From an uncultured Oscillospiraceae bacterium (GTDB lineage: Bacteria; Bacillota; Clostridia; Oscillospirales; Ruminococcaceae), in NCBI GenBank assembly GCA_934448295.1, contig CAKSEY010000004.1, forward strand, positions 71,003 through 135,002: a DNA stretch of 64,000 bases. The letters are read 5' to 3'. Below are positions 28,043 through 43,300 of this stretch, piece after piece. The position numbers and the translations under genes are program-made. Below the pieces are notes generated by a model. It searched no databases. It was not told where the DNA came from and worked only from the letters and a program-made list of their open reading frames with translations. Position 1 is the stretch's first letter; every line of letters begins with the position of its first letter.

Positions 28043-29782
28043 TCACTTCTGAAGATCGTACACGTCACGATAATAGCCGTTTTTCTGAATAAGCTCCTCG
28101 TGGGTTCCCTGCTCCAGAATACCGCCGTCCTTCAGCACGATGATCTTATCCGCATACTTGGCGGTGGAAATTCGCTGGGCGATGATTATTTTAGTGCAGG
28201 GGAAATCCAGGTTTGAGAGCGCGTTCTGAATGTGCTTCTCGGTTTCAAGGTCAACTGCGGAGGTCGTGTCGTCGAGGATAAGTATTGCGGGCTTCACCGC
28301 AAGCGCCCTTGCCAGGGAGATCCTCTGCTTCTGACCGCCGGAAAGTCCCACGCCGCGCTCGCCGACTATCGTATCATAGCCGTCTGACAGCCTGCGGACA
28401 AATCCGTCTGCGTCCGCTGCTTTCGCGTATTTCACCACATCCTCCTCCGGCATATCGGTGTCACCGAAGCAGATGTTTCCGTCAATGGTGTCGGAGTACA
28501 GCAGCACGTCCTGAGTCGCAAAGCCGATGTTGTGGCGGAGCTGTTTCAGCTTGAGGTGGGTCACATTTACGCCGTCAACCCGAACCTCGCCGCCGTTCGC
28601 GTCGTAGATCCTTGGGATAAGCTCCGCTAGCGTGGTCTTGCCGGAGCCGGTCTCGCCCATGATCACCACGGTCTGACCTGGCTCCACGGTAAAGCTGACG
28701 TCCCGGAGCACCTCGGTATTTCCGTAGGAGAAGCTGACGTGGTCAAACTCGACCTTTCCCTCGAAGCGGCCGGGCTTGTCCACTGCGTCGTTGCGGTCAA
28801 CGATCCGCGGGCTTCCGTAATAGATCTCGATTATCTTGTTCGCAGAAGCGGAAAAGCGCTGAAGGTCGTTGACGATATTTCCGAGAGTTCTCATGGGGTT
28901 GGAGAGCGTCCAGATAAGTCCCGAAAATGCCGCGTACTGACCCATGGTGATCCTGCCGGATACCACGAAAAGTCCGCCTGCAATTATCATAACCACGGAA
29001 AGCGACTGCGCGGTGGTTTCCAGGAACGGGAAGAATTTCAGCCACATGAAAGCCGCTTTCTTGTTTGCCGTGCTGTATTCCCGGCTGTATTTGTCGAACT
29101 GCTTTATCTCGTAGTCCTCCCGGGCGAAAGCCTTGACGACCCGGTTGCCGGAGATGTTCTCCTCGGCGGCGGTGTTCATCCTTGACAGCTTTTCGCGAAG
29201 GTCAACGTAAAGGGGGCCGACCTTTCGCTTGAACAGCCAGGTTATGAACAGTATCACGGGAGTCAGCGCGATCATGCACAGCGCCATCAGCCAGTCCATC
29301 GTGAAGAAGAAAATCAGCGAAGCCGAAAAGAGAACGATACACTCCACAATGGTCTTGATTATCCAGGCTATCGAGTGCCGAACCATGTCAAGGTCGGCGG
29401 AAACACGCGTCATAATATCGCCAGTGCGGTACACGTTATAAAATGACGCGTCCTGGTTCTCTATCTTGTCGAACAGCACCTTTCTCACGCGGTAGATCAG
29501 CGTCTGGGAGGTGTGCTCGTACATCATGTTGCTTCCGTACTGCATTCCGCAGCGCAGCAGTGTGAAGCCTATCATCGCCGCGAGCATCAGCAGGAGCAGG
29601 TCGGTGTGCTCCTGGAGATTCTGGAGCGCGTTTTCGTTTACAATGAACGTGTCTGTTATCTGCTGGGTAAAGTATGGCGTGATTATGTACATGGACTGAC
29701 ACAGCACCGTCAGGCACAGCGCAAGTATATAAATCGCGCGGCAGCCCTTCATGTTCTTCCACAGCCATCTGAAAAGAAACAT
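28043..29782 (-). CDS. ABC exporter, fused permease/ATPase subunit (heterodimer partner A)
   Basis: 6-TM domain plus NBD with Walker A GETGSGKTT, signature LSGGQKQR and Walker B ILILDDTTSAVD. Confidence 0.9.
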   Translation of the reverse strand: MFLFRWLWKNMKGCRAIYILALCLTVLCQSMYIITPYFTQQITDTFIVNENALQNLQEHTDLLLLMLAAMIGFTLLRCGMQYGSNMMYEHTSQTLIYRVRKVLFDKIENQDASFYNVYRTGDIMTRVSADLDMVRHSIAWIIKTIVECIVLFSASLIFFFTMDWLMALCMIALTPVILFITWLFKRKVGPLYVDLREKLSRMNTAAEENISGNRVVKAFAREDYEIKQFDKYSREYSTANKKAAFMWLKFFPFLETTAQSLSVVMIIAGGLFVVSGRITMGQYAAFSGLIWTLSNPMRTLGNIVNDLQRFSASANKIIEIYYGSPRIVDRNDAVDKPGRFEGKVEFDHVSFSYGNTEVLRDVSFTVEPGQTVVIMGETGSGKTTLAELIPRIYDANGGEVRVDGVNVTHLKLKQLRHNIGFATQDVLLYSDTIDGNICFGDTDMPEEDVVKYAKAADADGFVRRLSDGYDTIVGERGVGLSGGQKQRISLARALAVKPAILILDDTTSAVDLETEKHIQNALSNLDFPCTKIIIAQRISTAKYADKIIVLKDGGILEQGTHEELIQKNGYYRDVYDLQK

Positions 29783-29980
29783 ATTTATCTCCCCTTCCTT
29801 TTCGCCCGGATATGTGTGTATGGGCGGTTGAAAACGTTTACTGATAGTATATCAGAAATCCTGAAAAAGTAAATCGGCAAAAGCATAAAAAATCGGTATT
29901 TTTTTAGTTGTTTTTTCGGTATAATAAATAAACATGATAGATTTGTACGATTTTTATACGTTATTGTACAATTACGGAAA

Positions 29981-30018
29981 ACGCAAATAAAAATGCGCCG
30001 CTGGAAACCCAACGGCGC
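29981..30018 (-). terminator. Rho-independent terminator downstream of fba
   Basis: gcgccg-N12-cggcgc followed on the minus RNA by AUUUUUAUUUG. Confidence 0.55.
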
Positions 30019-30041
30019 AAAAAGAGAATCGAATCGGTAAA

Positions 30042-30905
30042 TTAAGCCTTGCCAACAGAACCGAACAGTTCCATCTTCTCCTTGACCTTAGCCTTGATAG
30101 CCTCGGTACCGGGAGCGAGGAGCTTTCTGGGGTCGAAGCCCTTGCCCTGGAGGTCCTTGCCCTCTTCGATGTACTTTCTTGTAGCTTCCTGGAATACGAG
30201 CTGGCACTCAGTGTTAACGTTGATCTTTGCAACGCCGAGAGAAATTGCCTTCTTGATCTGGTCGTCAGGAATGCCTGTGCCGCCGTGCAGAACGAGAGGC
30301 ATATCGCCAACCTCTGCCTTGATCTTAGCCAGTGTGTCGAAGGACAGGCCAGGCCAGTTAGCAGGATACTTGCCGTGAATGTTGCCGATACCAGCAGCCA
30401 GCATTGTAACGCCGAGGTCTGCTACCATCTTGCACTCCTTGGGATCTGCGCACTCGCCCATGCCGATAACGCCGTCCTCTTCGCCGCCGATGGAACCTAC
30501 CTCAGCCTCAAGGGAGATACCGAGAATATCGCAGGTGTTGACAAGAGCTGTTGTCTTTGCGATGTTCTCTTCGATCGGATAGTGAGAACCATCGAACATG
30601 ATGGAGGAGAAGCCAGCGTTGATGCAAGCCTTTGCGCCCTCGAAGGTGCCGTGGTCAAGGTGAAGCGCAACCGGAACTGTGATATGCAGATTCTCGATCA
30701 TGCCCTTTACCATGCCAACGATGGTGGAATAACCGCACATATACTTGCCTGCGCCCTCAGAAACACCGAGGATAACAGGGGACTTGCACTCCTCTGCGGT
30801 GAGAAGAACTGCCTTTGTCCACTCAAGGTTGTTGATGTTGAACTGACCAACAGCATACTTGCCGTCGCGAGCCTTGTTCAGCATTTCTTTTGCAGATACT
30901 AACAT
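30042..30905 (-). CDS. fba: Class II fructose-1,6-bisphosphate aldolase
   Basis: Start reassigned to ATG 30905 (AAGGAGA RBS). Class II FBA motifs: MLVSAKEML..., LHLDHG, HGGTG. Confidence 0.9.
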   Translation of the reverse strand: MLVSAKEMLNKARDGKYAVGQFNINNLEWTKAVLLTAEECKSPVILGVSEGAGKYMCGYSTIVGMVKGMIENLHITVPVALHLDHGTFEGAKACINAGFSSIMFDGSHYPIEENIAKTTALVNTCDILGISLEAEVGSIGGEEDGVIGMGECADPKECKMVADLGVTMLAAGIGNIHGKYPANWPGLSFDTLAKIKAEVGDMPLVLHGGTGIPDDQIKKAISLGVAKINVNTECQLVFQEATRKYIEEGKDLQGKGFDPRKLLAPGTEAIKAKVKEKMELFGSVGKA

Positions 30906-30954
30906 AGTTTTATATCTCCTTTGAAATAAAGTTGGATAAAAATCCATTCAATTT

Positions 30955-30983
30955 ATTATAACGCATTTTTCTGAAAAAAGCAA
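30955..30983 (-). promoter_or_regulatory. Sigma-A promoter for fba
   Basis: TTGCTT-17 nt-TATAAT on the minus strand. Confidence 0.5.
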
Positions 30984-31037
30984 TATATTTTTCAAAAAAA
31001 GTGTAATTTCCGATTCCACGTCTTCCACGGCGAAATG

Positions 31038-31763
31038 TCAGCCCTGGCTTACTTCCGTGGTATACCGGAAAATCTCGTCAGTGGACACATTTTCGAAGGA
31101 TTCAAAGCCCTCCTCACGGCGCATCTGATAGTAGCCGTCTATCAGCGGGATTATAATGCAGACAGCCGCCGTGATCACAGCCGCTATAATTACTACGATA
31201 AGCTTCTGCTCCTTTGTCCACTTATGCTGAGGTACCGCGTCCTGCTTTACCTCGAACTGGCGCGCCCTGCCGGAGCTCACGCTGTGGATAACGTACGCCT
31301 TGAGCTTGTCCTCGGCGGCGATTTTCGTGCAGATATCCTTGTAGCTCTTGTCAAGCGCGGATGTCAGCTCTCCGGGGAGCTCGTCCAGCACAGAGCGGAC
31401 GTACTTCGCGCTCTCGCCGGTTATTTTCGCGATATGCTCCGGCTCCAGGTCGTTCTCCCAGGTCATGTGGATAATTGAGCGCACGACAAAGGGCTTCCGG
31501 AGTATTTCCTCCAGAAGCTGCTGCTTTCTGCTGTCAAGCTCCACCCCGGTAAGGGTCACTGCGGATTCGTTTCCGTCCGCCTCCCTTGCCATAGGGTACG
31601 CTTTCAGAATAAGGCTGTAAAGCTCGGTGCTGTCGGGATATTCCCCGCAGGCGGACATCATCTTCACGAAAATTTCCTTTGCAGCGCCAAAATCCTTGGT
31701 GGAGATCAGCGCCAGCGCGAAGATGTCGTCCCCGAAATAATCAATAAGGTGCGTTATTTCCAT
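31038..31763 (-). CDS. Membrane-anchored protein with ECF-sigma-like sigma2/sigma4 regions fused to a C-terminal TM helix
   Basis: N-terminus IDYFGDDIFALALISTKDFGAAKEIFVKMM resembles sigma-70 region 2. LEPEHIAKITGESAKYVRSVLDEL resembles the region 4 HTH. A hydrophobic helix LIVVIIAAVITAAVCIIIPLI is followed by a ~45-aa tail. The ATG overlaps the hisE stop. Confidence 0.4.
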   Translation of the reverse strand: MEITHLIDYFGDDIFALALISTKDFGAAKEIFVKMMSACGEYPDSTELYSLILKAYPMAREADGNESAVTLTGVELDSRKQQLLEEILRKPFVVRSIIHMTWENDLEPEHIAKITGESAKYVRSVLDELPGELTSALDKSYKDICTKIAAEDKLKAYVIHSVSSGRARQFEVKQDAVPQHKWTKEQKLIVVIIAAVITAAVCIIIPLIDGYYQMRREEGFESFENVSTDEIFRYTTEVSQG

Positions 31764-31764
31764 A

Positions 31765-32091
31765 TCAGGTGTTGTGGTCGCTTACATGGAACTGCTTAAG
31801 ATTGCCGATCTTCTTGCTGCGCTCGACCATGATCTTCTCGATATCCTCCACGGTCACGCCGCGGTCAGCCATCATGACTATCATGTGATACAGCAGGTCG
31901 TTTATCTCGTTTGCAAGCTCGTCCTTGTCGTTGTTCTTGGCGGCAATGACCATCTCGGTGCACTCCTCGCCGCACTTTTTGAGTATCTTGTCGATCCCCT
32001 TGTCGAACAGGTAGCAGGTGTAGGAGCCCTCCTGCGGGTTTGCCCTGCGGTCTACCACTACGTCGTACATATCCTTGAATGCGTCCATCAT
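31765..32091 (-). CDS. hisE: Phosphoribosyl-ATP pyrophosphohydrolase
   Basis: HisE motifs EGSYTCYLFDKGIDKILKKCGEE and ADLLYHMIV. Confidence 0.85.
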   Translation of the reverse strand: MMDAFKDMYDVVVDRRANPQEGSYTCYLFDKGIDKILKKCGEECTEMVIAAKNNDKDELANEINDLLYHMIVMMADRGVTVEDIEKIMVERSKKIGNLKQFHVSDHNT

Positions 32092-32096
32092 GTTGA

Positions 32097-32720
32097 TTAC
32101 TCCTCGATTTTTAATACTTTTGTAAAGAAGCCGCGGAATCCCCCGCCGAAGCTGTCCTCAAGCTGAAAATCCTCCGGGGTCATATCGTAATAATACTTTT
32201 CCGTGCGAATATCCAGCGATATCCTGTCAAGCGGATATCCCTCGACCTTTTTGGGGTGCGGCTTGTCGGTGATCCAGAAGCTCCTGCCGGAAATATCCCC
32301 GCCCATATGCTCATAAATCTCGGTTTCAGACATTACAAGGCATATAGCGTTTAAATATCTGGCGGTAAGCCTGCCGTAGCTTTTTGCAAGTCCGGCGTAA
32401 TACTCCGTCATTTCATCATCGGTCAGCCGTTTTCCATTAACATTTCTTACATGAGTTCCAGGCTGCAGCTCGTCCGGGAGCTGCTCAATATACAGCCCGC
32501 TGTCGCAGGAAAACACCGGAACGCCGTAATGCCGGTAATAGGCTATTGCCTTGCTACGAGCGTTCTCCAGAGGCGACCTGCCGTTTTCATCTGCCGCCGG
32601 AGACTGCCCGGGCATATCCGATAAGCTCAGAAGCTGAATACCCGTCCCGGAAAGATGGTTCCTCATGGAATTCAGCTTTGCGGGATTCCCCGTGCCGTAT
32701 AAAAGAGTGATCTGCATCAC
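32097..32720 (-). CDS. Ham1/RdgB-like (Maf/Ham1 superfamily) putative non-canonical NTP pyrophosphatase, divergent
   Basis: 207 aa. Ham1-like landmarks [11 protein letters not shown] (TGNxxK), ENARSKA and CDSGL (cf. DDSGL). It sits between hisI and hisE, overlapping hisI by 4 nt. Confidence 0.4.
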
Positions 32721-33031
32721 TTTATCCTGGTGAAGAAGCAGCTCCTGTGACCTGTATGACAGGCTGCCCCGGTCTGGATAACCTTTACCAGCAGCGTGTC
32801 GTCGTCGCAGTCGCTGTAAATCTCAACCACCTTCTGGAAATGCCCCGAGGTCGCGCCCTTGTTCCACAGCTCCTGGCGGGAACGGCTCCAGAACCAGGTA
32901 TAGCCTGTCTCCAGGGTCTTCTGGAGGCTTTCCTCGTTCATGTATGCAAGCATGAGCACCTCGCCGTTTTCAGCGTCGGTGACTATCGCCGGAATAAGCC
33001 CGGACTTCTTGAAATATTTCTTTACGTCCAT
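32717..33031 (-). CDS. hisI: Phosphoribosyl-AMP cyclohydrolase
   Basis: HisI motifs [17 protein letters not shown] and CHTGHRSCF. Confidence 0.9.
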
Positions 33032-33112
33032 ATAATTTCACTTTCTGTCGGCTGCTCTTCCGGCAGCGCTCACTATGAATAGTATAACACAAATTTCCGG
33101 AAAAAGCAAGGG

Positions 33113-33856
33113 TCAATCCCACCAGAAGCTCCACACGGAGGATTTTGTCAGCATATCCGCCAGAACCCCTATCATCTGCACGCCCTGATCGATAATATCC
33201 GGGCAGAATGCGTACTGCTCCAGCGCCAGCCCGACTGCCGCGCTTTTATCGCGCACCGGCTGAACCGCGAATTCAAGTATATCGTGTGAAACCGCCGCCG
33301 GAACTGCACCAAACTTCTGATACCAGTAGCGGCTTATCATGACGTGTTCCTCGGACAGAGGGCACTCGTTCCAGCCGCCGAACGGAAGCCACGCGAAAAC
33401 CTCCCAGGGCTTGTCTGTGGGTATTTTCGCGAGGATAACTTCTTTGGTTTTCTGGGTCAAAGTATCTACAAAACTGCATAGTCTGGTCGTCCTGATTCCA
33501 GAAATATCCGTATCTGCGGTTATCTCATTCCAGTATTCGCCGAATTCCTCTTTCATTTCCGTGAGCTTTTCCATGAACCATTCCGGCGCTTCCCCGGAGG
33601 CTTCGGAAAGGATTTCGGCTCTGAGCTGTTCGGCGGTTTCCCCGGGCTTTATCTTGCTTTTGATATCCTCGACCAGCATATCGTCTACGGCTATCAGCAG
33701 CGGAGTGGTCTTGTCCATTTCCATTCTGGCGAATGCTTCCTCATAGCTGGACTGAATTAGCTGCGCGGGCTTCCCTGCTGGAAAATACCTGCACTCGCAG
33801 CCCAGAAAATCCATTATGAATTTCGCGTTTTCAGACGGTTTTGTGAAAAGTCCCAT
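33113..33856 (-). CDS. Hypothetical cytoplasmic protein (Trp-rich; no family recognised), embedded in the his operon
   Basis: 247-aa ORF with good coding periodicity and 2-nt spacing from hisF. Trp/aromatic-rich C-terminus (WEVFAWLPFGGWNECP...WSFWWD). Confidence 0.5.
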   Translation of the reverse strand: MGLFTKPSENAKFIMDFLGCECRYFPAGKPAQLIQSSYEEAFARMEMDKTTPLLIAVDDMLVEDIKSKIKPGETAEQLRAEILSEASGEAPEWFMEKLTEMKEEFGEYWNEITADTDISGIRTTRLCSFVDTLTQKTKEVILAKIPTDKPWEVFAWLPFGGWNECPLSEEHVMISRYWYQKFGAVPAAVSHDILEFAVQPVRDKSAAVGLALEQYAFCPDIIDQGVQMIGVLADMLTKSSVWSFWWD

Positions 33857-33857
33857 G

Positions 33858-34628
33858 TCAGCCTCCAGCCCTGGTTCTTACAGGAATATTGCGCTCCTTC
33901 AGGTGCTCCTTTACCTCGTCGACGGTGAGCTCCTTAAAGTGGAAAAGCGAAGCCGCAAGCGCCGCCGAGCTTTTGGTTTTCTCGAACACCTCGGAGAAGT
34001 GTTCCAGCTTTCCACAGCCGCCGCTCGCGATCACCGGGATCTTCACGCGGTCGCAGACAAAATTCAGCATATCAATGTCGAAGCCGCCGCGCACTCCGTC
34101 CGTGTCGATGGAATTCAGGCATATCTCGCCGGCTCCGCGCTCTTCGATTTCCTTTACCCAGTCGCCGAGGTCGAGATTCATGTCAACCCTGCCGCCGTTG
34201 ATGAATACGCTGTAACCGCCCTTTCCGTCGCGCTTCGCGTCGATTCCGACAACAACGCACTGGCTGCCGAATATCTCCGCAGCGTCGCTGATGAGCTTCG
34301 GGTTCTTGACCGCCTGGGAATTAACGGAAACCTTGTCCGCGCCCGCTCTCAGCGTATCGCGGAAATCCTGCACGGAGCTTATTCCGCCGCCAACGCACAG
34401 CGGCACGAAAACCTGCTGCGCGGTGCGCTTCACAACGTCCAGCATAACTCCCCTGCCCTCGCAGGAGGCGGTTATGTCATAGAAAACCAGCTCGTCCGCG
34501 CCCTGGCGGTTGTACTCTATCGCAAGCTCCACCGGGTCGCCTACATCCCTGATTCCCTCGAAGTTCACGCCTTTTACTACCTTTCCGTTGCGCACGTCAA
34601 GGCACGGGATAATTCTCTTAGCAAGCAT
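33858..34628 (-). CDS. hisF: Imidazole glycerol phosphate synthase, cyclase subunit
   Basis: Start reassigned to ATG 34628 (AAGGAGA RBS). HisF N-terminus [20 protein letters not shown]. Confidence 0.95.
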
Positions 34629-34638
34629 ATTTTTCTCC

Positions 34639-35361
34639 TTACTCTGCCACGCGGACAGCCTGAGCCAGATCAAGGCTGCCGGAATAGATGGATTTACCGC
34701 AGATTGCGCCGTAAATTCCGTTCTTTTTCAGCGTCCTTATGTTGTTGATGGTCTTTATCCCGCCGCTCGCTATTACGTTTCCGCCAAGCGGCGCAAGCGT
34801 TCCCTGGAGTTTCTTTGTCTTGTAGTGATTCGGGCGGCTGAGCGTTCCGTCCTTGTCTATGTCTGTAAATATGAAGAACTGCACGCCCGCGCGGCACATT
34901 TCAACGCCGAGGTCTATGTAGTTCACGCCGCTGGTTTCAAGCCAGCCCTCGGTTGCGACAAAACCGTTTTTCGCGTCGATCCCAACGGCTATGCGCCCTC
35001 TGAATTCCTTGGCGGCGCGCTTTACGAACTCCGGATCCTTTACAGCCGCCGAGCCGATTATTACCCTGGAAATTCCGGCGTTCAGGTACATTTCTACCGT
35101 GTCAAGGCTGCGTATCCCGCCGCCAACCTCTACTTTCAGCTTCGTATTTTTCGCAACGTCAATGAAAATATCCTTGTTCTGCTGAGTAGCGTCCTTGGCG
35201 CCGTCAAGATCCACCATGTGCACCCACTCAGCGCCGGAGGCCTCAAAGCCCCGGGCGGTGTCCATGTAGCTGTCAGCCACTTTCTGCACGGTTCCGTAAT
35301 CGCCCTTGAACAGGCGCACGCAGTTTCCGTCCTTTATATCTATTGCCGGAAGAATTACCAT
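34639..35361 (-). CDS. hisA: ProFAR isomerase
   Basis: HisA N-terminus [17 protein letters not shown] and a (beta/alpha)8 pattern paralogous to HisF. Confidence 0.95.
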
Positions 35362-35454
35362 TTTAGTTCTCCTTGTGGTTTGGAATTCGTAAAAGAAAAC
35401 TTTTACGCAATAAGATGAAAACGAATCACAAAATTAATGCCGCGTCCCAGAAAA

Positions 35455-36054
35455 TCAAAGCTCAGCAAAGCAGCGCAGGATATTCAGACCCGTTTCGCCG
35501 CTCTTTTCCGGGTGGAACTGCGCGCCGTAAACGTTGCCCTCGAACACGAGCGCCGGAACCTTCATTCCATAGTCGCAGTATGCCGCAACGTTGCTGCTGT
35601 CACACTCAGCCGCGTAGCTGTGAACGAAATAGACGTATTCCCCGTCGGCGCACCTGTCAAGGAGCCTGCACGGAACGTTCTTTTCAAGGGCGTTCCAGCC
35701 TATCTGCGGAACCGGGAGGTCTCCCGCCGGGTGCATGAGCTTCACGCTGCCCTTTATCAGACCAAGTCCGTCAGTCTCACCGAATTCGTAGCCCTTTTCG
35801 AAGAGCATCTGCATTCCCAGGCAGATACCCAGCAGCGGCTTTTTCCGGACTTCTTCCCTGATGACTTCAATAAGCCCGGTCTCGCCGAGCATTCTCATTG
35901 CGTCAGGAAACGCGCCGACCCCCGGGAGTATCAGCCTGTCTGCGCTTCTGAGGTTGTCGGCGCTGTTGGTTATTTTGTTTTCCAGCCCGAGGAAGTCCAG
36001 CGCGTTCTTCACGCTGAACAGGTTTCCCGCGCCGTAGTCGATTATTGCTATCAT
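35455..36054 (-). CDS. hisH: Imidazole glycerol phosphate synthase, glutaminase subunit
   Basis: Class I GATase motifs MIAIIDYGAGN, GICLGMQ and HPE. Confidence 0.95.
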   Translation of the reverse strand: MIAIIDYGAGNLFSVKNALDFLGLENKITNSADNLRSADRLILPGVGAFPDAMRMLGETGLIEVIREEVRKKPLLGICLGMQMLFEKGYEFGETDGLGLIKGSVKLMHPAGDLPVPQIGWNALEKNVPCRLLDRCADGEYVYFVHSYAAECDSSNVAAYCDYGMKVPALVFEGNVYGAQFHPEKSGETGLNILRCFAEL

Positions 36055-36485
36055 ATTGCAGTTCCTTTCGTTGTCAGGAATATCCTGTCGCGGTTCAGCT
36101 TTATATGCTCCATGATGTGCCCGATATTTCCCTCGCCGGCATACTTTTTCATGTCGAAGAAGTCGCAGTCAAGGCCGCTCCAGAAAAGCGGGTTTTCCTC
36201 TCCCTGAACCTCTATTGACTGAACAAGCTGACCTGCGTAGACCTCCACATAGCACGGGTCGAGCGGGTAGCTGAAATCCATTAGATGTATGAGCTTTATA
36301 TCCCTGTCCGAAATCCCAGTTTCCTCAAATAATTCGCGGTAAGCCGCGTGTTCGCCGCTCTCGCACGGCTCGATTTTGCCGCCGACAAAGTTTATAAGCC
36401 CCTTGTACGGCTCCTTTATCCGGCGGCACATGAGCATTTTCTCTCCGTCTGGCGAAAATACGGCAATGAGATTATATCCCTGCAT
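36051..36485 (-). CDS. NUDIX hydrolase
   Basis: Perfect Nudix box GKIEPCESGEHAAYRELFEETGI (Gx5Ex7REUxEExGU). Overlaps hisH by 4 nt and abuts hisB. Confidence 0.8.
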   Translation of the reverse strand: MQGYNLIAVFSPDGEKMLMCRRIKEPYKGLINFVGGKIEPCESGEHAAYRELFEETGISDRDIKLIHLMDFSYPLDPCYVEVYAGQLVQSIEVQGEENPLFWSGLDCDFFDMKKYAGEGNIGHIMEHIKLNRDRIFLTTKGTAI

Positions 36486-37069
36486 TACAGTACGCCCTTG
36501 GTGGATACCACAGAGCCGTCCGTATTGCGCTTCACTGCGGTTTTGAGCGCATAGGCTAGCGCCTTGAACAGCGCCTCTATCTTGTGGTGGTCGTTGCTTC
36601 CGTACTCGCAGCGGAGGTGCAGCGTTATCCCTGCGTTGAACGCAAAGGAGCGCATGAATTCCTCCGTCAGACAGGTGTCGAACTCCCCTACCCGCTCATT
36701 TGTGAACTGCGCATTGAAAACCAGAAAAGGTCTTGCGCTGATGTCAAGGGCGCAGAATGCAAGGGATTCGTCCATCGGAACAAACGCGCTGCCGAAGCGC
36801 ATTATGCCGGACTTGTCCCCTAGCGCTTCCTTAAAAGCCATTCCGAGGACTATCCCGACGTCCTCGGCGGTGTGGTGCCCGTCAACGTAAAGGTCTCCCT
36901 TTGCGCTGACTTCAAGGCTGAACCCGCCGTGAACCGCAAGCGCGGTCAGCATATGGTCGAGAAAGCCGATCCCGGTGGAGATATCCGCATGAGCGCCGCC
37001 GTCCAAATCCAGCTTTACGCTTATGTCCGTTTCTTTTGTTTTTCTGGTTATTTCAGCGGTTCTGTTCAT
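36485..37069 (-). CDS. hisB: Imidazoleglycerol-phosphate dehydratase (monofunctional)
   Basis: IGPD motifs [12 protein letters not shown] and [10 protein letters not shown]. 194 aa with no N-terminal HAD phosphatase domain. Confidence 0.95.
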
Positions 37070-37072
37070 TTT

Positions 37073-38371
37073 TCAGCCCTCTTTGCGTACCCTGATGGAG
37101 TTTGCGTGCGCGGTAAGCTTTTCGCGCTCCGCAATGAGAATGATGTCGTCAGCCGCGTCAAGCAGTGCGTCCTTGGTGTAGCAGATATAGCTGGAGCGCT
37201 TAACGAAGCTGTCCACGCCGAGCGGTGAGAAAAATCTCGCCGTGCCGCTGGTCGGAAGGACGTGGTTCGGCCCTGCATAATAGTCGCCGAGGGGCTCCGG
37301 TGAATACTGCCCGAGGAACAGCGAACCAACGTTGTCTATCTTGCCGATGTACTCGGTCGGGTTCTCTGCAACGACTTCCATGTGCTCGGGAGCAAGCTTG
37401 TTTGCAAGCTCGATGGCGTAGTCCTTGTCCTCGCTGACTATGATAGCGCCGTAGTTGGTCATGGAATAATCAATGATGTCCTTTCTGGACAGGTAAGCGG
37501 ACTGGCGCTCGATCTCCGCCTGTGTTCTTACCGCGATATCCATGCTGGTGGTTATCATGATGGCGCTTGCCAGCTTGTCGTGCTCCGCCTGGGACATAAG
37601 GTCGGCGGCGAGGTAAACAGGGTTTGCCGTCTCGTCTGCGAATACAAGAATCTCGCTGGGACCTGCGAACATATCAATGTCAACCGTTCCGTAAAGCAGC
37701 TTCTTGGCAGTGGCTACGAAAATATTGCCCGGGCCGACTATCTTGGAAACTCTCGGTATCTCCTCGGTTCCGTAGGCGAGGGCGGCAACAGCCTGTGCGC
37801 CGCCTGCAAGGTAGATCTTATCGACTCCGCAGAGAGCGGCGGCAACCAGAATATCCTTGTTCGCCGTGCCGTCCTTGAGGGGCGGAGTTACCATGATTAT
37901 CTCCTTTACGCCCGCTATCTTTGCGGGAATAGCGTTCATCAGCACCGAGGAGGGATAAGCCGCCGTGCCGCCGGGAACGTACAGCCCCACGCGGTCAAGC
38001 CCCCTTACGCGCTGACCCATGATAACGCCGTTTTCCTCGGTTACGCAGAAGCCCTCGCGCTTCTGTCTGTTGTGGAACGCAGTTATGTTCTCCACTGCGT
38101 TCAGCATTGCGTTGACGAAATCCGGGCTTTTCTCGTTAGCCTCGGTGAGCGCGTCCTGTATAGCCTCGTCAGGAACTCTGTAATACTGCGCGTTGGGACA
38201 GTCGAACTTCGCAGTGTAGCTCTTTACCGCTGCGTCGCCGTTTTCCTTTACGTCCGCGAGAATAGCACGGACGGTCTTTTCAACGTCCGCATTAACCTGA
38301 CCTGCGCGCTTTTCAACTTCCGCGAGGAACTGCTTTTCCTCGCCGTCAGCCTTGATTATCCTTATCATCAC
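37073..38371 (-). CDS. hisD: Histidinol dehydrogenase
   Basis: 432-aa HisD with conserved AGPSE and QAEHD-type motifs. Confidence 0.95.
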   Translation of the reverse strand: MMIRIIKADGEEKQFLAEVEKRAGQVNADVEKTVRAILADVKENGDAAVKSYTAKFDCPNAQYYRVPDEAIQDALTEANEKSPDFVNAMLNAVENITAFHNRQKREGFCVTEENGVIMGQRVRGLDRVGLYVPGGTAAYPSSVLMNAIPAKIAGVKEIIMVTPPLKDGTANKDILVAAALCGVDKIYLAGGAQAVAALAYGTEEIPRVSKIVGPGNIFVATAKKLLYGTVDIDMFAGPSEILVFADETANPVYLAADLMSQAEHDKLASAIMITTSMDIAVRTQAEIERQSAYLSRKDIIDYSMTNYGAIIVSEDKDYAIELANKLAPEHMEVVAENPTEYIGKIDNVGSLFLGQYSPEPLGDYYAGPNHVLPTSGTARFFSPLGVDSFVKRSSYICYTKDALLDAADDIILIAEREKLTAHANSIRVRKEG

Positions 38372-39000
38372 AAATTCTCCTCTATCTGCTTAACTATTTC
38401 AGCGATACGCTGCTGCTTGAGCTTCATACTTACTGTGTTCACGATAAGTCTTGCGGAAATGGGAGCTACGTCCTCCCAGACCTCCAGACCGTTTTCCTTA
38501 AGGGTGGTTCCGGTTTCGACTATATCCACGATTCCGTCCGCCAGCCCCACCAGCGGAGCCAGCTCAACGGAGCCCTCTATCTTCACAATGTCAACGTCCA
38601 TGCCCTTGTTTTCAAAGAAGCTGCGGGTTACCTCAGGGTATTTTGTGGCGACTGTCTTGACGCCGTAGCCCTCGTAGAAATTGCCGCCTTTCTTTCCAGC
38701 AAGCGCAAATTTGCACCTGCCGAAGCCCAGGTCGCTTATCTCGAAGAACTTCCCACCGTGCTCCATTATGGTGTCCTTGCCGACAACTCCGATATCGCAC
38801 ACCCCGTGCTCAACATATGTAATTACGTCCGCAGCCTTTGCAAGAACTACCTCAATATTCTCGCCGGGTATGGAAAGAATCAGACGTCTGCCCTTTTCGC
38901 GCAGCTCGGTGACGTCGTAGCCTATCCTGTCCAGCAGGTCAACGGTTTTCTGCTCCAGCCTGCCCTTGGTGAGCGCGATCCTGATGGTCTTGTTCTTCAT
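38368..39000 (-). CDS. hisG: ATP phosphoribosyltransferase, short form
   Basis: 210-aa HisG(S) with N-terminus MKNKTIRIALTKGRL. Overlaps hisD by 4 nt. Confidence 0.95.
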   Translation of the reverse strand: MKNKTIRIALTKGRLEQKTVDLLDRIGYDVTELREKGRRLILSIPGENIEVVLAKAADVITYVEHGVCDIGVVGKDTIMEHGGKFFEISDLGFGRCKFALAGKKGGNFYEGYGVKTVATKYPEVTRSFFENKGMDVDIVKIEGSVELAPLVGLADGIVDIVETGTTLKENGLEVWEDVAPISARLIVNTVSMKLKQQRIAEIVKQIEENL

Positions 39001-39002
39001 GC

Positions 39003-40199
39003 TCAGACCTCCTTTACGGTAACAGCGGAATTTCTGCCGACTATATCTATCCGTTTTATTCCGTGCTGTTTTGCGTAATTCCCGGCTTCCTCAACTGTTG
39101 AGAACAGCGAGTTGAACACGGTGAGCCCGGCGTCTATCAGCTCTCGGCAGTGATTCAGCGCAGAAATTTCGCAGCCCGGCTCGCTGAATACCAGAACGTC
39201 TGCCGGCTTTGTGAGCGGCGAGGAAGTATTTTTCAGGAACACCTTTGCCGCCGCCTCGACATTTACTGCGAATCCTACCGCCGCCGCATTCCTGCCGAAG
39301 CCGCCCAGCAGCGTGTCGTAACGTCCGCCGGAAAGCACCGGAAGCCCGTACCCCTCGACATAGCCGCGGAACAGGATTCCCGTGTAATAATTCTTCTTGT
39401 GGGCAAGACCGAGGTCTACCTTTATCTTGCCGGAATAGCCCATGGAGCAGAGCGCCTCGTATGTAGCGTGCAGGCTGCTCAGCTTGGTGCGTAGCTCCTT
39501 GCTGTACATATACTTCTCAGCCGCCGCGAACACTTCGCTTTCGCCGAACAGCGACGGAAGCGCCTTTACAGCCTCCGCAGCGCTGCCGGAAATTCCCTCC
39601 AGCGCTTCGTTCAGCGCGGGGTAATTCTTGCTTTCTATAAGCGCGTGTATCTCCTCGGACTGCTCTTCAGGGAGGTTCAGGTCGTCAACCACGGTGCGGA
39701 AAATTCCGCTTTCGCCTATTTCAAGGCGGAAATCCTCATCGACTGCAAACAGCGCCTGCGCCGCCAGCGAAAGCGCCTCGTAATCAGCCGCCGTGGTTTC
39801 GCCGCCGAGTATCTCGATTCCGCTCTGGGTGAACTCGTCGTCCCTGCCGCTGTTCTTGGGATTCACCATGAATATGCTCTGATTGTAGTAGAGCTTCAGC
39901 GGGAGCGGCTCCTTACTGAGCCGGGTCGCCGCCAGACGCGCGATAGGCATTGTATTATCCGGACGGAGCACCATCAGGCGGTTTTTGCCGTCCACCAGCT
40001 TGTACATAGTTTCCTGCGGGAAATAACGCACCTTGCCGCCGAATACATCATAGAATTCCAGCCCCGGGGTCAGCACCTCGGAATAGCCGTACGCCGTAAA
40101 TATCTTTCTCAGTTTTTCCTGTATGCTGCGCTTGGCGATACACTCGTCAAAAAGCAGATCCCTGGTTCCCTCCGGGGTGAGCAGATCGTATCTTTTCAC
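39003..40199 (-). CDS. hisZ: ATP phosphoribosyltransferase regulatory subunit (HisRS paralogue)
   Basis: Class II aaRS-like core without an anticodon-binding domain, upstream of short-form hisG. GTG start with GGAGGAGAAGG RBS. Confidence 0.9.
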   Translation of the reverse strand: MKRYDLLTPEGTRDLLFDECIAKRSIQEKLRKIFTAYGYSEVLTPGLEFYDVFGGKVRYFPQETMYKLVDGKNRLMVLRPDNTMPIARLAATRLSKEPLPLKLYYNQSIFMVNPKNSGRDDEFTQSGIEILGGETTAADYEALSLAAQALFAVDEDFRLEIGESGIFRTVVDDLNLPEEQSEEIHALIESKNYPALNEALEGISGSAAEAVKALPSLFGESEVFAAAEKYMYSKELRTKLSSLHATYEALCSMGYSGKIKVDLGLAHKKNYYTGILFRGYVEGYGLPVLSGGRYDTLLGGFGRNAAAVGFAVNVEAAAKVFLKNTSSPLTKPADVLVFSEPGCEISALNHCRELIDAGLTVFNSLFSTVEEAGNYAKQHGIKRIDIVGRNSAVTVKEV

Positions 40200-40245
40200 T
40201 TTCCTTCTCCTCCGCTTTAGTGTGGTAGTGTGATATCATGCTACT

Positions 40246-40274
40246 AGTATAACACAAAACAGCGGTATTGTCAA
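40246..40274 (-). promoter_or_regulatory. Sigma-A promoter of the his operon
   Basis: TTGACA-17 nt-TATACT on the minus strand, ~45 nt upstream of the hisZ GTG. The leader is too short for a T-box or attenuator. Confidence 0.55.
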
Positions 40275-40332
40275 TAAGCGGTGTATTTTTTGGCAATTTG
40301 CACAGCCGCTTTCAACAATACCGCTGAAAGAA

Positions 40333-43300
40333 TCACATATCGAACAGCGACATCTGGGCGGAATTCGGGATATCCCCGAAAACTCCCATTTCGCGCATTT
40401 TATCCATGACAGAGCTGTTTAGCCCGCTCTGCTGCTGGATATCGTCGATACACATATAATTGCCCGCGTCTATTACCTCTTTCAGCTTGAACGCCGCGTT
40501 GGAGCCGCAGCCCGCTATTGAAAGGTACGGCATACGCAGCTTTCCGTCCTCGATACGGTAGGTGGACGCCCCGGATTTCCTTGCGTCCACCGGAAGCACG
40601 CCGATACCGCGGGACATCATCTCGTTCACCAGAAGCAGCGCGTCAAGCGTTCCTTTTTCCTTGACTCCGATACTCGGCATCGCCTGGAGCTGCTTTATGC
40701 GCTCCCTGACCGCTTCCCTGCCCTGGAGCACCACGTCAAGCTCCATGTTTTCCGTGTGCTTGGTGAGCGTTGCGGCATAGAATTCGCACGGCTTGTTAAT
40801 CTTGAACCAGCACAGCTTTACCGCAGAGGTAACGTATGCCGCCGCGTGCGCCTTCGGGAACATGTACTTTATCTTCTTGCAGCTCTCAACGTACCAGTCC
40901 GGGACGTTGTTGTCCTTGAATGCCTGGTAAATCGTGTCGTCGAACAGCTTGGTCGCGTTGCCCTTTCGGGTTATCTCCATTATCTTGAACGCAAGGCTGG
41001 GCTCGACCCCCTTGTGAAGCAGGTAAACCATGATGTTGTCACGCGTTCCGATAACCTCGGAAATCGTGCAGGTGCCGTTTTTAATAAGATCCTGCGCATT
41101 GCCGAGCCATACGTCAGTGCCGTGGGACAGACCAGAGATCTGGAGCAGGTCGGAGAAGTTCCTCGGCTTTGCGTCCTGAAGCATCTGCATTGCGAACGGC
41201 GTGCCGAATTCCGGTATGCCGTAGGTCCCGCAGGGGGCAAATATATCGTCCGGAGTTACCCCCAGCGGCTCGGTGGAAATGAACAGGTCGTATATCGCAC
41301 GGTCAGTTGTGGATACGTCCGCGATCTTCATTCCGGTCATATCCTCCAGGTGCTTGTACAGGGTCGGCACATCATGTCCCAGCTCGTCAAGCTTGAGGAT
41401 AGTATCATGTAGCGCGTGGAAGTCGAAGTGCGTAGTTATCATGTCGCTGTCCGTCTTGTCCGCCGGGTGCTGAACAGGCGTGAAGTCGTAGACTTCGTAA
41501 TCGTTCGGTACAACGACCATTCCGCCCGGGTGCTGGGAGGTGGTTCTCTTTACGCCGGTGCAGCCTATGGAAATACGCTCCATCTCGGCGTTGTTGTATT
41601 CAATGCCGCGCTCCTCGCAGTACTTTTTTGCGAAGCCGTATGCGGTCTTGTCCTGAACTGCGGAGATAGTACCCGCCTTGAACACATGATCCTTACCGAA
41701 CAGCTCTTCTGTGTAGCGGTGAACCTTACCCTGCACCTCGCCGGAGAAGTTAAGGTCGATATCAGGCGCCTTGTCTCCCTTGAAGCCAAGGAACGTTTCG
41801 AACGGGATATCGTGTCCGTCGCGTATCATGTCGGTTCCGCAGACCGGGCAGTTCTTCTGCGGCAGGTCGAATCCGGAGCCGACCGAGCCGTCCGTGATGA
41901 ACTCGTTGTGGCGGCACTTGGGACAGCGGTAATGCGGCGCCAGGGGGTTGACCTCCGAGATACCGGACATTATCGCAACAAACGACGAGCCGACAGAACC
42001 ACGGGAGCCTACGAGATAGCCGTTGTCCTCGGAATATTTTACCAGCTTCTGGGCGATCATGTAAAGCACCGAGAATCCATACTTGATGATAGCGTCAAGC
42101 TCTTTCTGGAGGCGCTTTTCAACGATTTCGGGCAGATCGTCGCCGTACCACGCGTGCGCCCTCGACCAGCAGAGATCCTGAAGCTCCTGCTCCGCGCCCT
42201 CAATGGACGGCGTGTAGGTTCCCTTGGGTATCGGGCGGATATCATCTACCATATCGGCTATGGCGTTGGGGTTCGTTATCACGACCTCGCGCGCCTTTTC
42301 CTCGCCGAGATAGCTGAACTCCGCAAGCATTTCATCGGTGGTGCGCAGGAACAGCGGCGCCTGGTTGTCTGCGTCCTTGAAGCCCTGCCCCGCCTGGAGT
42401 ATCTTGCGGAAAATTCCGTCCTCCTCGTTCATGAAGTGCACGTCGCAGGTGGCAACGACCGGCTTGCCGAGCTTCTCGCCAAGGCGGACAATCTTCATGT
42501 TGAGCGCGCGGAGCCCGTCGTCGTCAGCGACTGTGCCCTCCCGCACAAGGAACCTGTTGTTCGCTATCGGCTGAATTTCCAGGTAGTCGTAGATGGAGGC
42601 TATCTTTTCGATTTCCGCCTGCGGCTTTTCGTTCAGTATCGCGCGGAAAAGCTCTCCAGCCTCGCAGGCGCTGCCGATTATCAGCCCCTCGCGGTGCTTT
42701 TCAAGCTCCGAAAGCGGAACGCGCGGCTTGCGGTAGAAATAATTCAGGTTGGAGTAAGAAATCAGCTTGTACAGGTTTTTCAGCCCGACCTGGTTCTTTG
42801 CAATGATTATCATGTGGTACATGGGCTGCTTCTTTACGTCCACGTTGCCGAGGACGCGGTTGAAATCGCCGAATTTTTCTACCGAATGTCCCTTGCAGGT
42901 CACTGTCACCATTGATACGAAAATCTTCGACAGCATTTCCGCGTCGTCTATCGCACGGTGGTGGTTGAAGTTACCCAGCTTGTACTCTTTCGCGACAGTA
43001 TCCAGCTTGTGGTTTTTGAGGTGCGGAAGCCCGGCTCTCGCAAGCTTCAATGTATCGCAGTAGCGGATATCGTACTTTATGCCGTGGCGCTCGCATACCT
43101 TCGCAATGAACGAGGTATCGAAATCCGCGTTGTGCGCCACAAGTACGCCCTTGCCGGCGAATTTTATGAAGTCCTGCACGGCGGTTTCCTCGGTGGGAGC
43201 GTCCTCCACCATTGCGTCGGTTATCCCGGTCAGCTCCGTGATATTCGCGGGTATGGGCTTTTCGGGGTTCACGAATGTCTGGAAGCGGTCTACTACCTCA

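Follow-up and report, generated by a model that had tools for sequence, protein, structure and literature searches.

The histidine (his) operon that occupies positions 31038-40274 of the minus strand in the 64,000-nucleotide stretch analysed here (the window; contig CAKSEY010000004.1 of an uncultured Oscillospiraceae bacterium) is, to our judgement probably, a normal biosynthetic operon that small accessory genes use as a landing site; these would ride on its promoter or promoters and on translational coupling. Its thirteen closely packed genes read hisZ-hisG-hisD-hisB-[NUDIX]-hisH-hisA-hisF-[DUF4253]-hisI-[Ham1-like]-hisE-[membrane protein]. In the scenario that we propose, the backbone would be the canonical Firmicutes-type hisZGDBHAF-I-E of an uncultured human-gut Oscillospiraceae lineage, in which unrelated small genes were repeatedly inserted at his junctions and kept for long. 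They would share the transcript of the operon, be coupled to it in translation, and be retained by selection for functions of their own and not for steps of histidine synthesis. The four passengers in the window would be a MutT-like NUDIX protein, a stand-alone DUF4253 protein, a divergent Ham1/ITPase-like nucleotide pyrophosphatase and a membrane-anchored protein with a degenerate sigma fold. We arrive at this reading because the backbone is the usual one, because some 50 insert families occur in patchy distribution, because homologues of the inserts live outside his operons, and because Corynebacterium glutamicum provides a precedent. An earlier interpretation of the same operon (the original prediction) had placed the missing histidinol-phosphate phosphatase among the inserts; what stands of it is that the inserts are real, tightly packed, conserved and selected, while the role as missing enzyme is not supported.

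A usual backbone with four embedded genes

Profile searches identify nine of the thirteen products as HisZ, HisG, HisD, HisB, HisH, HisA, HisF, HisI and HisE, and the families precomputed on a contig of the same species (L001) are in accord with the profile identities of the operon proteins. Gene order, families and tight packing are as the original prediction had listed them, open reading frames (ORFs) and profile identities agreeing with its list. From hisZ onward, the gaps between consecutive genes measure 2, -4, 3, -1, -4, 93, 10, 1, 81, -1, 5 and 1 nt, the majority of the junctions lying within -4 to +10 nt; the NUDIX gene shares 1 nt with hisB and 4 nt with hisH. HisB, said before to be without the HAD N-terminal domain, is indeed monofunctional: the protein of 194 aa holds an imidazoleglycerol-phosphate dehydratase (IGPD) domain only, and its match to the model of bifunctional HisB is restricted to the C-terminal half (model positions 166-355).

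In gene order, in the pairing of a short-form HisG with HisZ and in the monofunctional HisB, the operon corresponds to the Bacillus/Clostridium type (hisZ-hisG-hisD-hisB-hisH-hisA-hisF-hisI/E), where hisC and the phosphatase, a PHP-type hisJ/hisK, are likewise encoded outside the operon. It differs from this type in that hisI and hisE are separate and four extra genes are interleaved; also, a T-box or attenuator was not detected, and a HisR-like site is only weak.

Accretion of genes at his junctions

Relatives of DUF4253 occur in 351 species, as judged by a scan of one genome per species. From these, 80 loci were mapped with the window's own proteins; they were sampled through DUF4253, so that the survey covers his operons with this gene. 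In 56 of the 80, the DUF4253 gene lies within a his operon, nearly always in the order hisF-DUF4253-hisI, with polC upstream and fba downstream as in the window. The genomes of these 56 are metagenome-assembled genomes (MAGs) of Oscillospiraceae or "Ruminococcaceae" and a few isolates, all from gut samples. The genes for NUDIX, the Ham1-like protein and the membrane protein of 241 aa reappear at the same junctions in many of the related operons, and inserts are kept across dozens of Oscillospiraceae species; a lack of conservation across genomes, which the original prediction had named as an outcome against itself, is not what we see.

How strongly are the inserts constrained? Between the window and L094, a relative with a collinear operon, the ratio of nonsynonymous to synonymous substitution rates (dN/dS) is 0.061 for NUDIX, 0.102 for the Ham1-like protein, 0.100 for the 241-aa protein and 0.126 for DUF4253, as against 0.003-0.044 for the nine his genes, and the G+C content at third codon positions is lower in three of the four inserts. 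The four embedded genes, tightly packed as they had been described, are real genes under purifying selection, evolving several-fold faster than the surrounding enzymes.

The load of inserts is far from uniform. One relative (L006) carries at least 12 extra genes in the same operon, and in the clade as a whole about 50 unrelated insert families occupy his junctions, 23 of them in at least two species. Those identified include GNAT proteins, fusions of GNAT and P-loop kinase, NAD-dependent epimerases, radical SAM, Fe-S and macro/DarG-like proteins, an HD phosphohydrolase and two HAD-IA nucleotidase-like proteins; neither hisC nor a recognised phosphatase is found among the identified inserts of the relatives' his operons. 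NUDIX is present in about half of the related operons, and many operons with His proteins 75-99% identical to those of the window lack NUDIX and the Ham1-like gene. In 11 loci of a sister clade, the hisI-hisE junction holds a protein of 213-221 aa without similarity to the Ham1-like protein. Conservation here follows a pattern of accretion and not that of an extended pathway with fixed members.

Two candidates for familiar proteins at these junctions were rejected. The 213-221 aa protein of the hisI-hisE slot was considered as a divergent Ham1 and dismissed as similarity is absent; inserts of 348-354 aa between hisD and hisB of relatives were considered as hisC and turned out to be GNAT and P-loop kinase fusions, then NAD-epimerases. 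An insert of 142-147 aa between hisH and hisA (L006 3830-4264 and five related loci) matches the macrodomain of the DarG antitoxin (PADLOC E 1e-10, with a weak match to Pfam Macro). In L058, L064 and L071, the ORF that matches HisI is only 30-31% identical to HisI of the window, HisE being 83-85% identical, which suggests that hisI is either replaced or very divergent there, or that the match is spurious.

The his operons of C. glutamicum carry impA, cg2301, cg2302 and cg2294, and deletion of impA or cg2301 is without a histidine phenotype (PMC3896937). As here, non-his genes stand between his genes, and there they are co-transcribed with them and internal promoters are present (PMC3896937). 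In contrast to that organism, which belongs to another phylum and harbours other passenger families, most junctions in the window are translationally coupled, and the load across the clade is far larger, with up to ~12-14 inserts per operon. Foreign genes embedded in his operons are already known; what is new is how extensive and diverse the accretion has been in one gut clade, along with the link of DUF4253 to polyimmunity proteins and a his-specific membrane-anchored protein of sigma fold. The gathering of so many passenger families in a single biosynthetic operon would be an unusual course of evolution in the abundant, uncultured gut Oscillospiraceae. If the passenger reading is true, tight embedding and conservation alone are insufficient to assign a gene to a pathway, which would temper a habit of annotation.

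The absence of hisC and of a phosphatase

As had been claimed before, hisC and a recognisable histidinol-phosphatase are absent from the operon, and neither turned up in the other window ORFs scanned: the PHP, HAD, IMPase and class I/II aminotransferase families found no match in the embedded proteins or in these ORFs. No operon protein matches a PHP domain of the HisJ/HisK type, the only PHP domain in the vicinity belonging to PolC; HisB being IGPD only, the operon of the window holds no HAD protein; and the IMPase-type HisN finds no family match among operon proteins or scanned ORFs. The HAD proteins in his operons of relatives are HAD-IA nucleotidase-like and reach 33.7 bits against TIGR01656, for which the cutoff is 84.

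In Bacillus subtilis, hisC resides in the aromatic supraoperon and hisJ is unlinked, both outside the his operon. As the Firmicutes-type order normally has hisC and the phosphatase elsewhere, their absence here is expected and shows no gap in the pathway, so that the step from missing enzymes to the inserts, which the original prediction had taken, loses its ground. If the passenger reading is right, the missing phosphatase probably just has its gene in another part of the genome; in Firmicutes such as B. subtilis and L. lactis, the enzyme is of the PHP type (PMC5516325, PMC3896937).

That NUDIX, DUF4253 or the Ham1-like protein is a new type of histidinol-phosphate phosphatase, filling a real gap in this lineage, is in our estimate very unlikely. 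Unrelated families have filled the phosphatase step several times (PMC5516325), and a known phosphatase was found neither in the operon nor in the scanned ORFs of the 64-kb window. Moreover, none of the clade's sampled his operons lacks DUF4253, the loci having been sampled via this gene, and its invariant Cys, Asp, Glu and Gln are a possible metal or active site. However, Firmicutes operons normally go without hisC and phosphatase, so a gap is not demonstrated, and none of the three proteins has the fold or a motif of a phosphomonoesterase. NUDIX and the Ham1-like protein represent pyrophosphatase, not monoesterase, families and are dispensed with in many otherwise identical operons; the Ham1-like protein in addition gives way to an unrelated protein in the sister clade and has homologues of 56-58% identity in non-his contexts. 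DUF4253 has a dN/dS 3 to 40 times that of the His enzymes and is found, with its motifs unchanged, in polyimmunity proteins, operons of M42 peptidases and tandem copies, which would be senseless for a dedicated biosynthetic phosphatase. It is the undemonstrated gap, the pattern of accretion and the polyimmunity contexts of DUF4253 that make the phosphatase hypothesis weak.

The NUDIX and Ham1-like proteins

The NUDIX protein retains an intact Nudix box, GGKIEPCESGEHAAYRELFEETGI (pattern GX5EX7REUXEEXGU), as read from the translation, and with 53.9 bits against PF00293 (gathering cutoff 21.1) it is a member of the Nudix superfamily. It stays below every NCBIfam equivalog cutoff, reaching 36.7 of the 97.9 bits required by TIGR00586 (MutT/8-oxo-dGTPase), and its best solved relatives are of the MutT, NudG and RppH types. 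From these features we take it to be an active MutT-like pyrophosphohydrolase.

The Ham1-like protein scores 57.3 bits against PF01725 (gathering cutoff 22.5), over profile positions 3-145 of 186 only, and 42.7 bits against the RdgB equivalog TIGR00042 (cutoff 145); its alignments to solved RdgB structures in the PDB cover residues 6-105 only. The N-terminal motifs TGNxxK and ExGxSxxxNAxxKA are retained, DDSGL has become CDSGL with Cys in place of the first Asp, and the C-terminal half has diverged. Probably, this is a nucleotide pyrophosphatase of altered specificity. The two proteins share with house-cleaning NTP pyrophosphatases (MutT-type Nudix enzymes and RdgB/Ham1 ITPases) the intact Nudix box and the N-terminal substrate and metal motifs of Ham1, respectively, but fall far short of the curated equivalog cutoffs, and the Ham1-like protein departs from them further in its C-terminal half and in CDSGL.

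Homologues of the Ham1-like protein live in non-his contexts, one of 58% identity being fused to a NUDIX domain (P0220) and encoded beside GNAT, NUDIX, tig and clpP, another of 56% identity being encoded after mreBCD-minD-mgsA. Fusions of NUDIX with HisI exist in a subclade (L006 10801-11520; hisI ORFs of 239-256 aa in L022-L032, L053 and L059). The HisI-fused domain was considered as the NUDIX of the window and rejected, the Nudix box alone being in common. Both kinds of fusion, NUDIX-HisI and NUDIX-Ham1-like, may be functional or may be by-products of very tight gene packing. The defence models of PADLOC match neither DUF4253 nor the Ham1-like and sigma-like proteins, and their match to NUDIX is a generic one.

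The DUF4253 protein and its relatives

The gene between hisF and hisI, a real embedded gene as proposed, had been set down as a Trp-rich unknown; it is not unknown, since its product is a member of the Pfam family DUF4253 (PF14062, 115.2 bits against a gathering cutoff of 27, residues 142-247). The protein has hundreds of full-length homologues, and an exhaustive profile search yields 2,956 family clusters. The invariant motifs are C20, PFGGWNEC, D192/E195, EQ..C.D and a C-terminal W.FWWD, with three invariant cysteines in all, and the predicted fold is knotted, with no solved relative.

More distant relatives, 35-44% identical along the full module, are met in two further settings. In 16 loci, the DUF4253 gene adjoins genes for M42 aminopeptidases, set among two or three paralogues and often in the order M42-M42-DUF4253-M42; junctions there often overlap, and DUF4253 is sometimes present as a tandem pair. 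These loci (L052, L060, L062, L066, L080 and 11 others) belong to another group of Oscillospiraceae, including three Lawsonibacter MAGs, several isolates and other MAGs. In four further loci, from Anaerotignum, Enterocloster and relatives, DUF4253 forms the C-terminal module of giant proteins 1,481-2,082 aa long (L085 4529-10777, L089 807-5279, L069 6203-10762 and L081 6320-10765). Two of these four giants were scanned, and both contain TPR, SuFu and DUF7832, one of them also Imm68, Imm33, SUKH and DUF4261. Roughly one in three of the 150 closest representatives of the family is longer than 330 aa, and in these the module nearly always ends at the C-terminus. In all nine large relatives scanned, DUF4253 is at the extreme C-terminus and is accompanied by at least one of SUKH, SuFu, Imm33, Imm68, DUF4261 and DUF7832; in one of the large relatives (P0349), DUF7832 is the sole such partner, next to an AAA domain. 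By analogy, DUF4261 and DUF7832 are probably immunity domains as well. One gene of the polyimmunity type has UPF0167/CbrC, DUF4274, DUF4241 and GNAT as neighbours.

These architectures fit the polyimmunity proteins as defined by Zhang et al. 2012 (PMC3482391). It is the close relatives (38-44% identity over the whole module), and not the window gene itself, that are modules of such proteins: the whole 247-aa unit recurs there, with identical motifs, as a C-terminal unit together with Imm68, Imm33, SUKH, SuFu and TPR, whereas in the window DUF4253 stands alone in a biosynthetic operon, and neither a further immunity domain nor a toxin lies nearby. Because his-embedded, M42-embedded, tandem and polyimmunity copies share their core motifs, they probably also share one molecular activity. 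Other inserts were likewise considered as polyimmunity modules and rejected, only DUF4253 fragments having matched the giants.

By analogy with its relatives, DUF4253 of the window is most likely a toxin-binding module of the immunity type that tends to sit in housekeeping operons; a strain-specific DUF4253 gene inside the dnaK cluster of B. cereus has been described (PMC10584648). The repeated use as terminal module of polyimmunity proteins offers a first functional lead for the family, which we did not find under the name DUF4253 in the literature on polymorphic toxin systems. A broader scenario, which we put forward as a tentative possibility, is that DUF4253 constitutes an unrecognised family of toxin-immunity modules, predicted to be knotted, of which gut Clostridia keep copies in operons that are essential and needed constitutively, and that the his operon is a landing pad for defensive and detoxifying genes. 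Stand-alone copies in the his operons of one Oscillospiraceae clade, the M42 aminopeptidase operons of another and the dnaK cluster of a B. cereus strain would there be reliably expressed and hard to lose; the his landing pad would gather NUDIX, Ham1-like, macro/DarG-like, GNAT, HAD and HD proteins under one promoter, and would end in a his-specific, membrane-tethered pseudo-sigma protein.

The membrane-anchored sigma-like protein

The last gene of the operon encodes a protein of 241 aa that folds over residues ~1-130 like a sigma factor of the extracytoplasmic function (ECF) type, with the two-domain sigma2-sigma4 arrangement, and continues with two further helices, a membrane helix (~184-217) and a short disordered tail. 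The earlier description as an ECF-sigma-like transmembrane protein is borne out for the fold and the single membrane helix but has no counterpart in a sequence match: neither Pfam nor NCBIfam reports Sigma70_r2 or Sigma70_r4 at E<=0.01. Sigma membership by sequence was rejected also on a PDB sequence search, which up to E<=10 returned only noise and no sigma factor. Among 94 homologues, just one matches PF08281. To ECF sigma factors in complex with anti-sigma factors (SigW-RsiW, CnrH-CnrY, RpoE-NepR) and to the sigma-like domain of PhyR, sequence identity amounts to 11-14%, with no match to a sigma hidden Markov model; in contrast to these pairs, the protein unites the fold, the further helices and the membrane helix in one chain, and is encoded as the last gene of a his operon. 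It is a membrane-anchored protein with a degenerate ECF-sigma fold.

Promoter-like and candidate regulatory sites

A single promoter had been proposed to drive all genes. A near-consensus promoter-like site does lie upstream of hisZ (P1, with a leader of ~40 nt to the start of hisZ), but it is not the sole one: its extended -10 12-mer, TTGTGTTATACT, has one further exact copy at 33081-33092, with TTGCTT 17 nt upstream, before hisI (2 matches in the window, 0.1 expected). As this second site (P2) shares the exact 12-mer with P1, a single promoter is not assured. Going by these motifs, the operon probably has a second promoter beyond P1, and P2 is probably an internal promoter for hisI, the Ham1-like gene, hisE and the 241-aa gene.

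A scan of 29000-41000 with Rfam gave no match to T-box, leader or riboswitch families. The short leader that follows the -10 element (40200-40245) is kept in relatives (L012, L013, L036, L047, L077 and others); it contains repeated GTGATA/GTTAC-like units and ends with CACTAAAGCGGAGG. One site in it, at 40213-40232, fits the HisR consensus with 3 mismatches in a position that suits a repressor. As a HisR operator it was rejected, since such 3-mismatch sites number 2 in the window against 1.34 expected and do not rise above chance.

The 93-nt spacer between hisH and hisA contains a palindrome, CGTAAAAG-N4-CTTTTACG. Across the clade, with about 20 related loci (e.g. L007 8440, L012, L047), a near-perfect palindrome TGCGTAAAAG-N4-CTTTTACGCA is kept at this junction within diverging flanks. 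It is a candidate either for an operator at an internal promoter or for a 5' hairpin. Several relatives have TATACT immediately upstream of the palindrome. Copies also stand just after fba in L011, L016 and L077, and inside the first ORF past fba in L088.

Passenger or pathway?

Several observations weigh against regarding the inserts as passengers. Besides the sampling through DUF4253, nucleotide hydrolases (NUDIX, Ham1, HAD-IA nucleotidase-like, HD and macro proteins) are over-represented as a theme among the inserts, and this, together with the NUDIX-HisI fusions, could reflect a link to the ATP, phosphoribosyl pyrophosphate and 5-aminoimidazole-4-carboxamide ribonucleotide (AICAR) chemistry of the pathway. 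The DUF4253 and sigma-like genes hold fixed sites (hisF-X-hisI and after hisE, respectively) despite divergence to ~41-45% identity, as is expected of a function linked to the pathway, and the sigma-like protein, represented by 94 homologues, is known from his operons only. In the loci inspected, DUF4253 has no toxin gene beside it, its immunity role being a case of guilt by association, and co-transcription of the operon is deduced from gene spacing.

Could NUDIX and the Ham1-like protein, with the HAD, HD and macro inserts of relatives, then be house-cleaning enzymes of the pathway, acting for instance on the riboside phosphates ZTP and ZMP arising from AICAR or on analogues of phosphoribosyl-ATP (PR-ATP)? 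The intact Nudix box and the N-terminal ITPase motifs would suit such a role, as would the purifying selection on both genes, the two kinds of NUDIX fusion, and the recurrence of nucleotide-type hydrolases, YjjG-like HAD-IA proteins and an HD protein among them, at the his junctions of relatives. But NUDIX and the Ham1-like protein are dispensable in many sister operons, the Ham1-like subfamily is also at home in unrelated neighbourhoods, and HisI is fused to a NUDIX domain other than that of the window. Moreover, NUDIX, GNAT and HAD are among the most abundant families of small enzymes in Clostridia and thus expected as random passengers, and many other inserts (epimerase, radical SAM, Fe-S, GNAT-kinase) have no clean-up logic. 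We therefore hold this explanation, which the original prediction had named as its alternative, to be unlikely.

The fixed positions also bear on another alternative, in which DUF4253, the sigma-like protein or both serve the operon as dedicated accessory factors. In this view, DUF4253 would bind His enzymes, inhibit them or handle metal for them, and would do so for M42 peptidases in the other clade, while expression of his or fba would be regulated by the membrane-tethered sigma-like protein. The his and M42 operons that host DUF4253 both encode metal-dependent enzymes, and the three invariant cysteines of DUF4253 are in keeping with this role. For a regulator speak, next to the confinement of the sigma-like family to his operons, the absence of a T-box, attenuator or clear HisR site before hisZ, the leader being short, and the conserved candidate operators in the leader and before hisA. 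Against this, the 150 closest representatives of DUF4253 include no fusion to a His enzyme, its polyimmunity contexts favour a generic role in protein binding, the sigma-like domain has no detectable similarity to sigma regions 2 and 4, and neither protein has a direct tie to DNA or a His enzyme. Dedicated accessory factors seem to us rather improbable, and landing-site status of the operon remains the reading that we prefer.

Coordinates of the features and the downstream neighbour

Table 1. Genes and putative regulatory sites of the his operon and its surroundings (coordinates refer to the window)
Feature	Coordinates	Strand	Basis or remark
P1, main promoter-like site, TTGACA-17-TATACT with TG extension	40246-40274	-	11 of 12 consensus matches
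hisZ, ATP phosphoribosyltransferase regulatory subunit, 398 aa, GTG start	39003-40199	-	PF13393 242 bits; TIGR00443 297 bits, above cutoff
hisG, short-form ATP phosphoribosyltransferase, 210 aa	38368-39000	-	PF01634 on same-species L001; ORF list
hisD, histidinol dehydrogenase	37073-38371	-	PF00815 on L001; 4-nt overlap with hisG
hisB, monofunctional IGPD, 194 aa	36485-37069	-	PF00475 226 bits; NF002111 288 bits
NUDIX, embedded gene 1, 144 aa	36051-36485	-	PF00293 53.9 bits
hisH, glutamine amidotransferase subunit	35455-36054	-	PF00117 on L001
Palindrome in the hisH-hisA spacer	35388-35407		Unique in window, 0 expected
hisA	34639-35361	-	PF00977 on L001
hisF, 256 aa from ATG 34628	33858-34628	-	TIGR00735 370 bits; L001 gene call
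DUF4253 protein, embedded gene 2, 247 aa	33113-33856	-	Begins 1 nt past hisF stop; PF14062
P2, promoter-like, TTGCTT-17 nt-TG-extended TATACT, in the 81-nt gap upstream of hisI	33081-33109	-	12-mer in common with P1
hisI, PR-AMP cyclohydrolase, 104 aa, not fused to hisE	32717-33031	-	PF01502 130 bits; NF000768 168 bits
Ham1-like, embedded gene 3, 206 aa from ATG	32097-32717	-	PF01725 57.3 bits
hisE, PR-ATP pyrophosphohydrolase, 108 aa	31765-32091	-	PF01503 77 bits; TIGR03188 106 bits
Membrane protein, embedded or terminal gene 4, 241 aa	31038-31763	-	N-terminal ECF-sigma-like fold
fba, class II fructose-bisphosphate aldolase, kept downstream neighbour	30042-30905	-	PF01116 in relatives

The longest ORF of hisF would begin at a TTG at 34673. 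Downstream of the operon, the 132-nt spacer before fba (30906-31037) contains TTGCTT-17-TATAAT, and its conservation in ten related species is 87-100% over stretches of 30-79 nt. Judged by this motif, fba likely has its own promoter, although no terminator follows the his genes; the sole strong terminator of the region lies after fba, at 30019-29994.

Two contigs of the survey stand in unexpected bins. A 3-kb contig (L084, CAVIFG010000285.1) with the his segment of these Oscillospiraceae, which reads hisF-DUF4253-hisI-Ham1-like-hisE and encodes a HisE 98% identical to that of the window is placed in a bin titled Escherichia coli, and a DUF4253 contig (L070, CANTXF010000042.1) in one titled Deferribacterales; both placements are probably due to contamination in binning.

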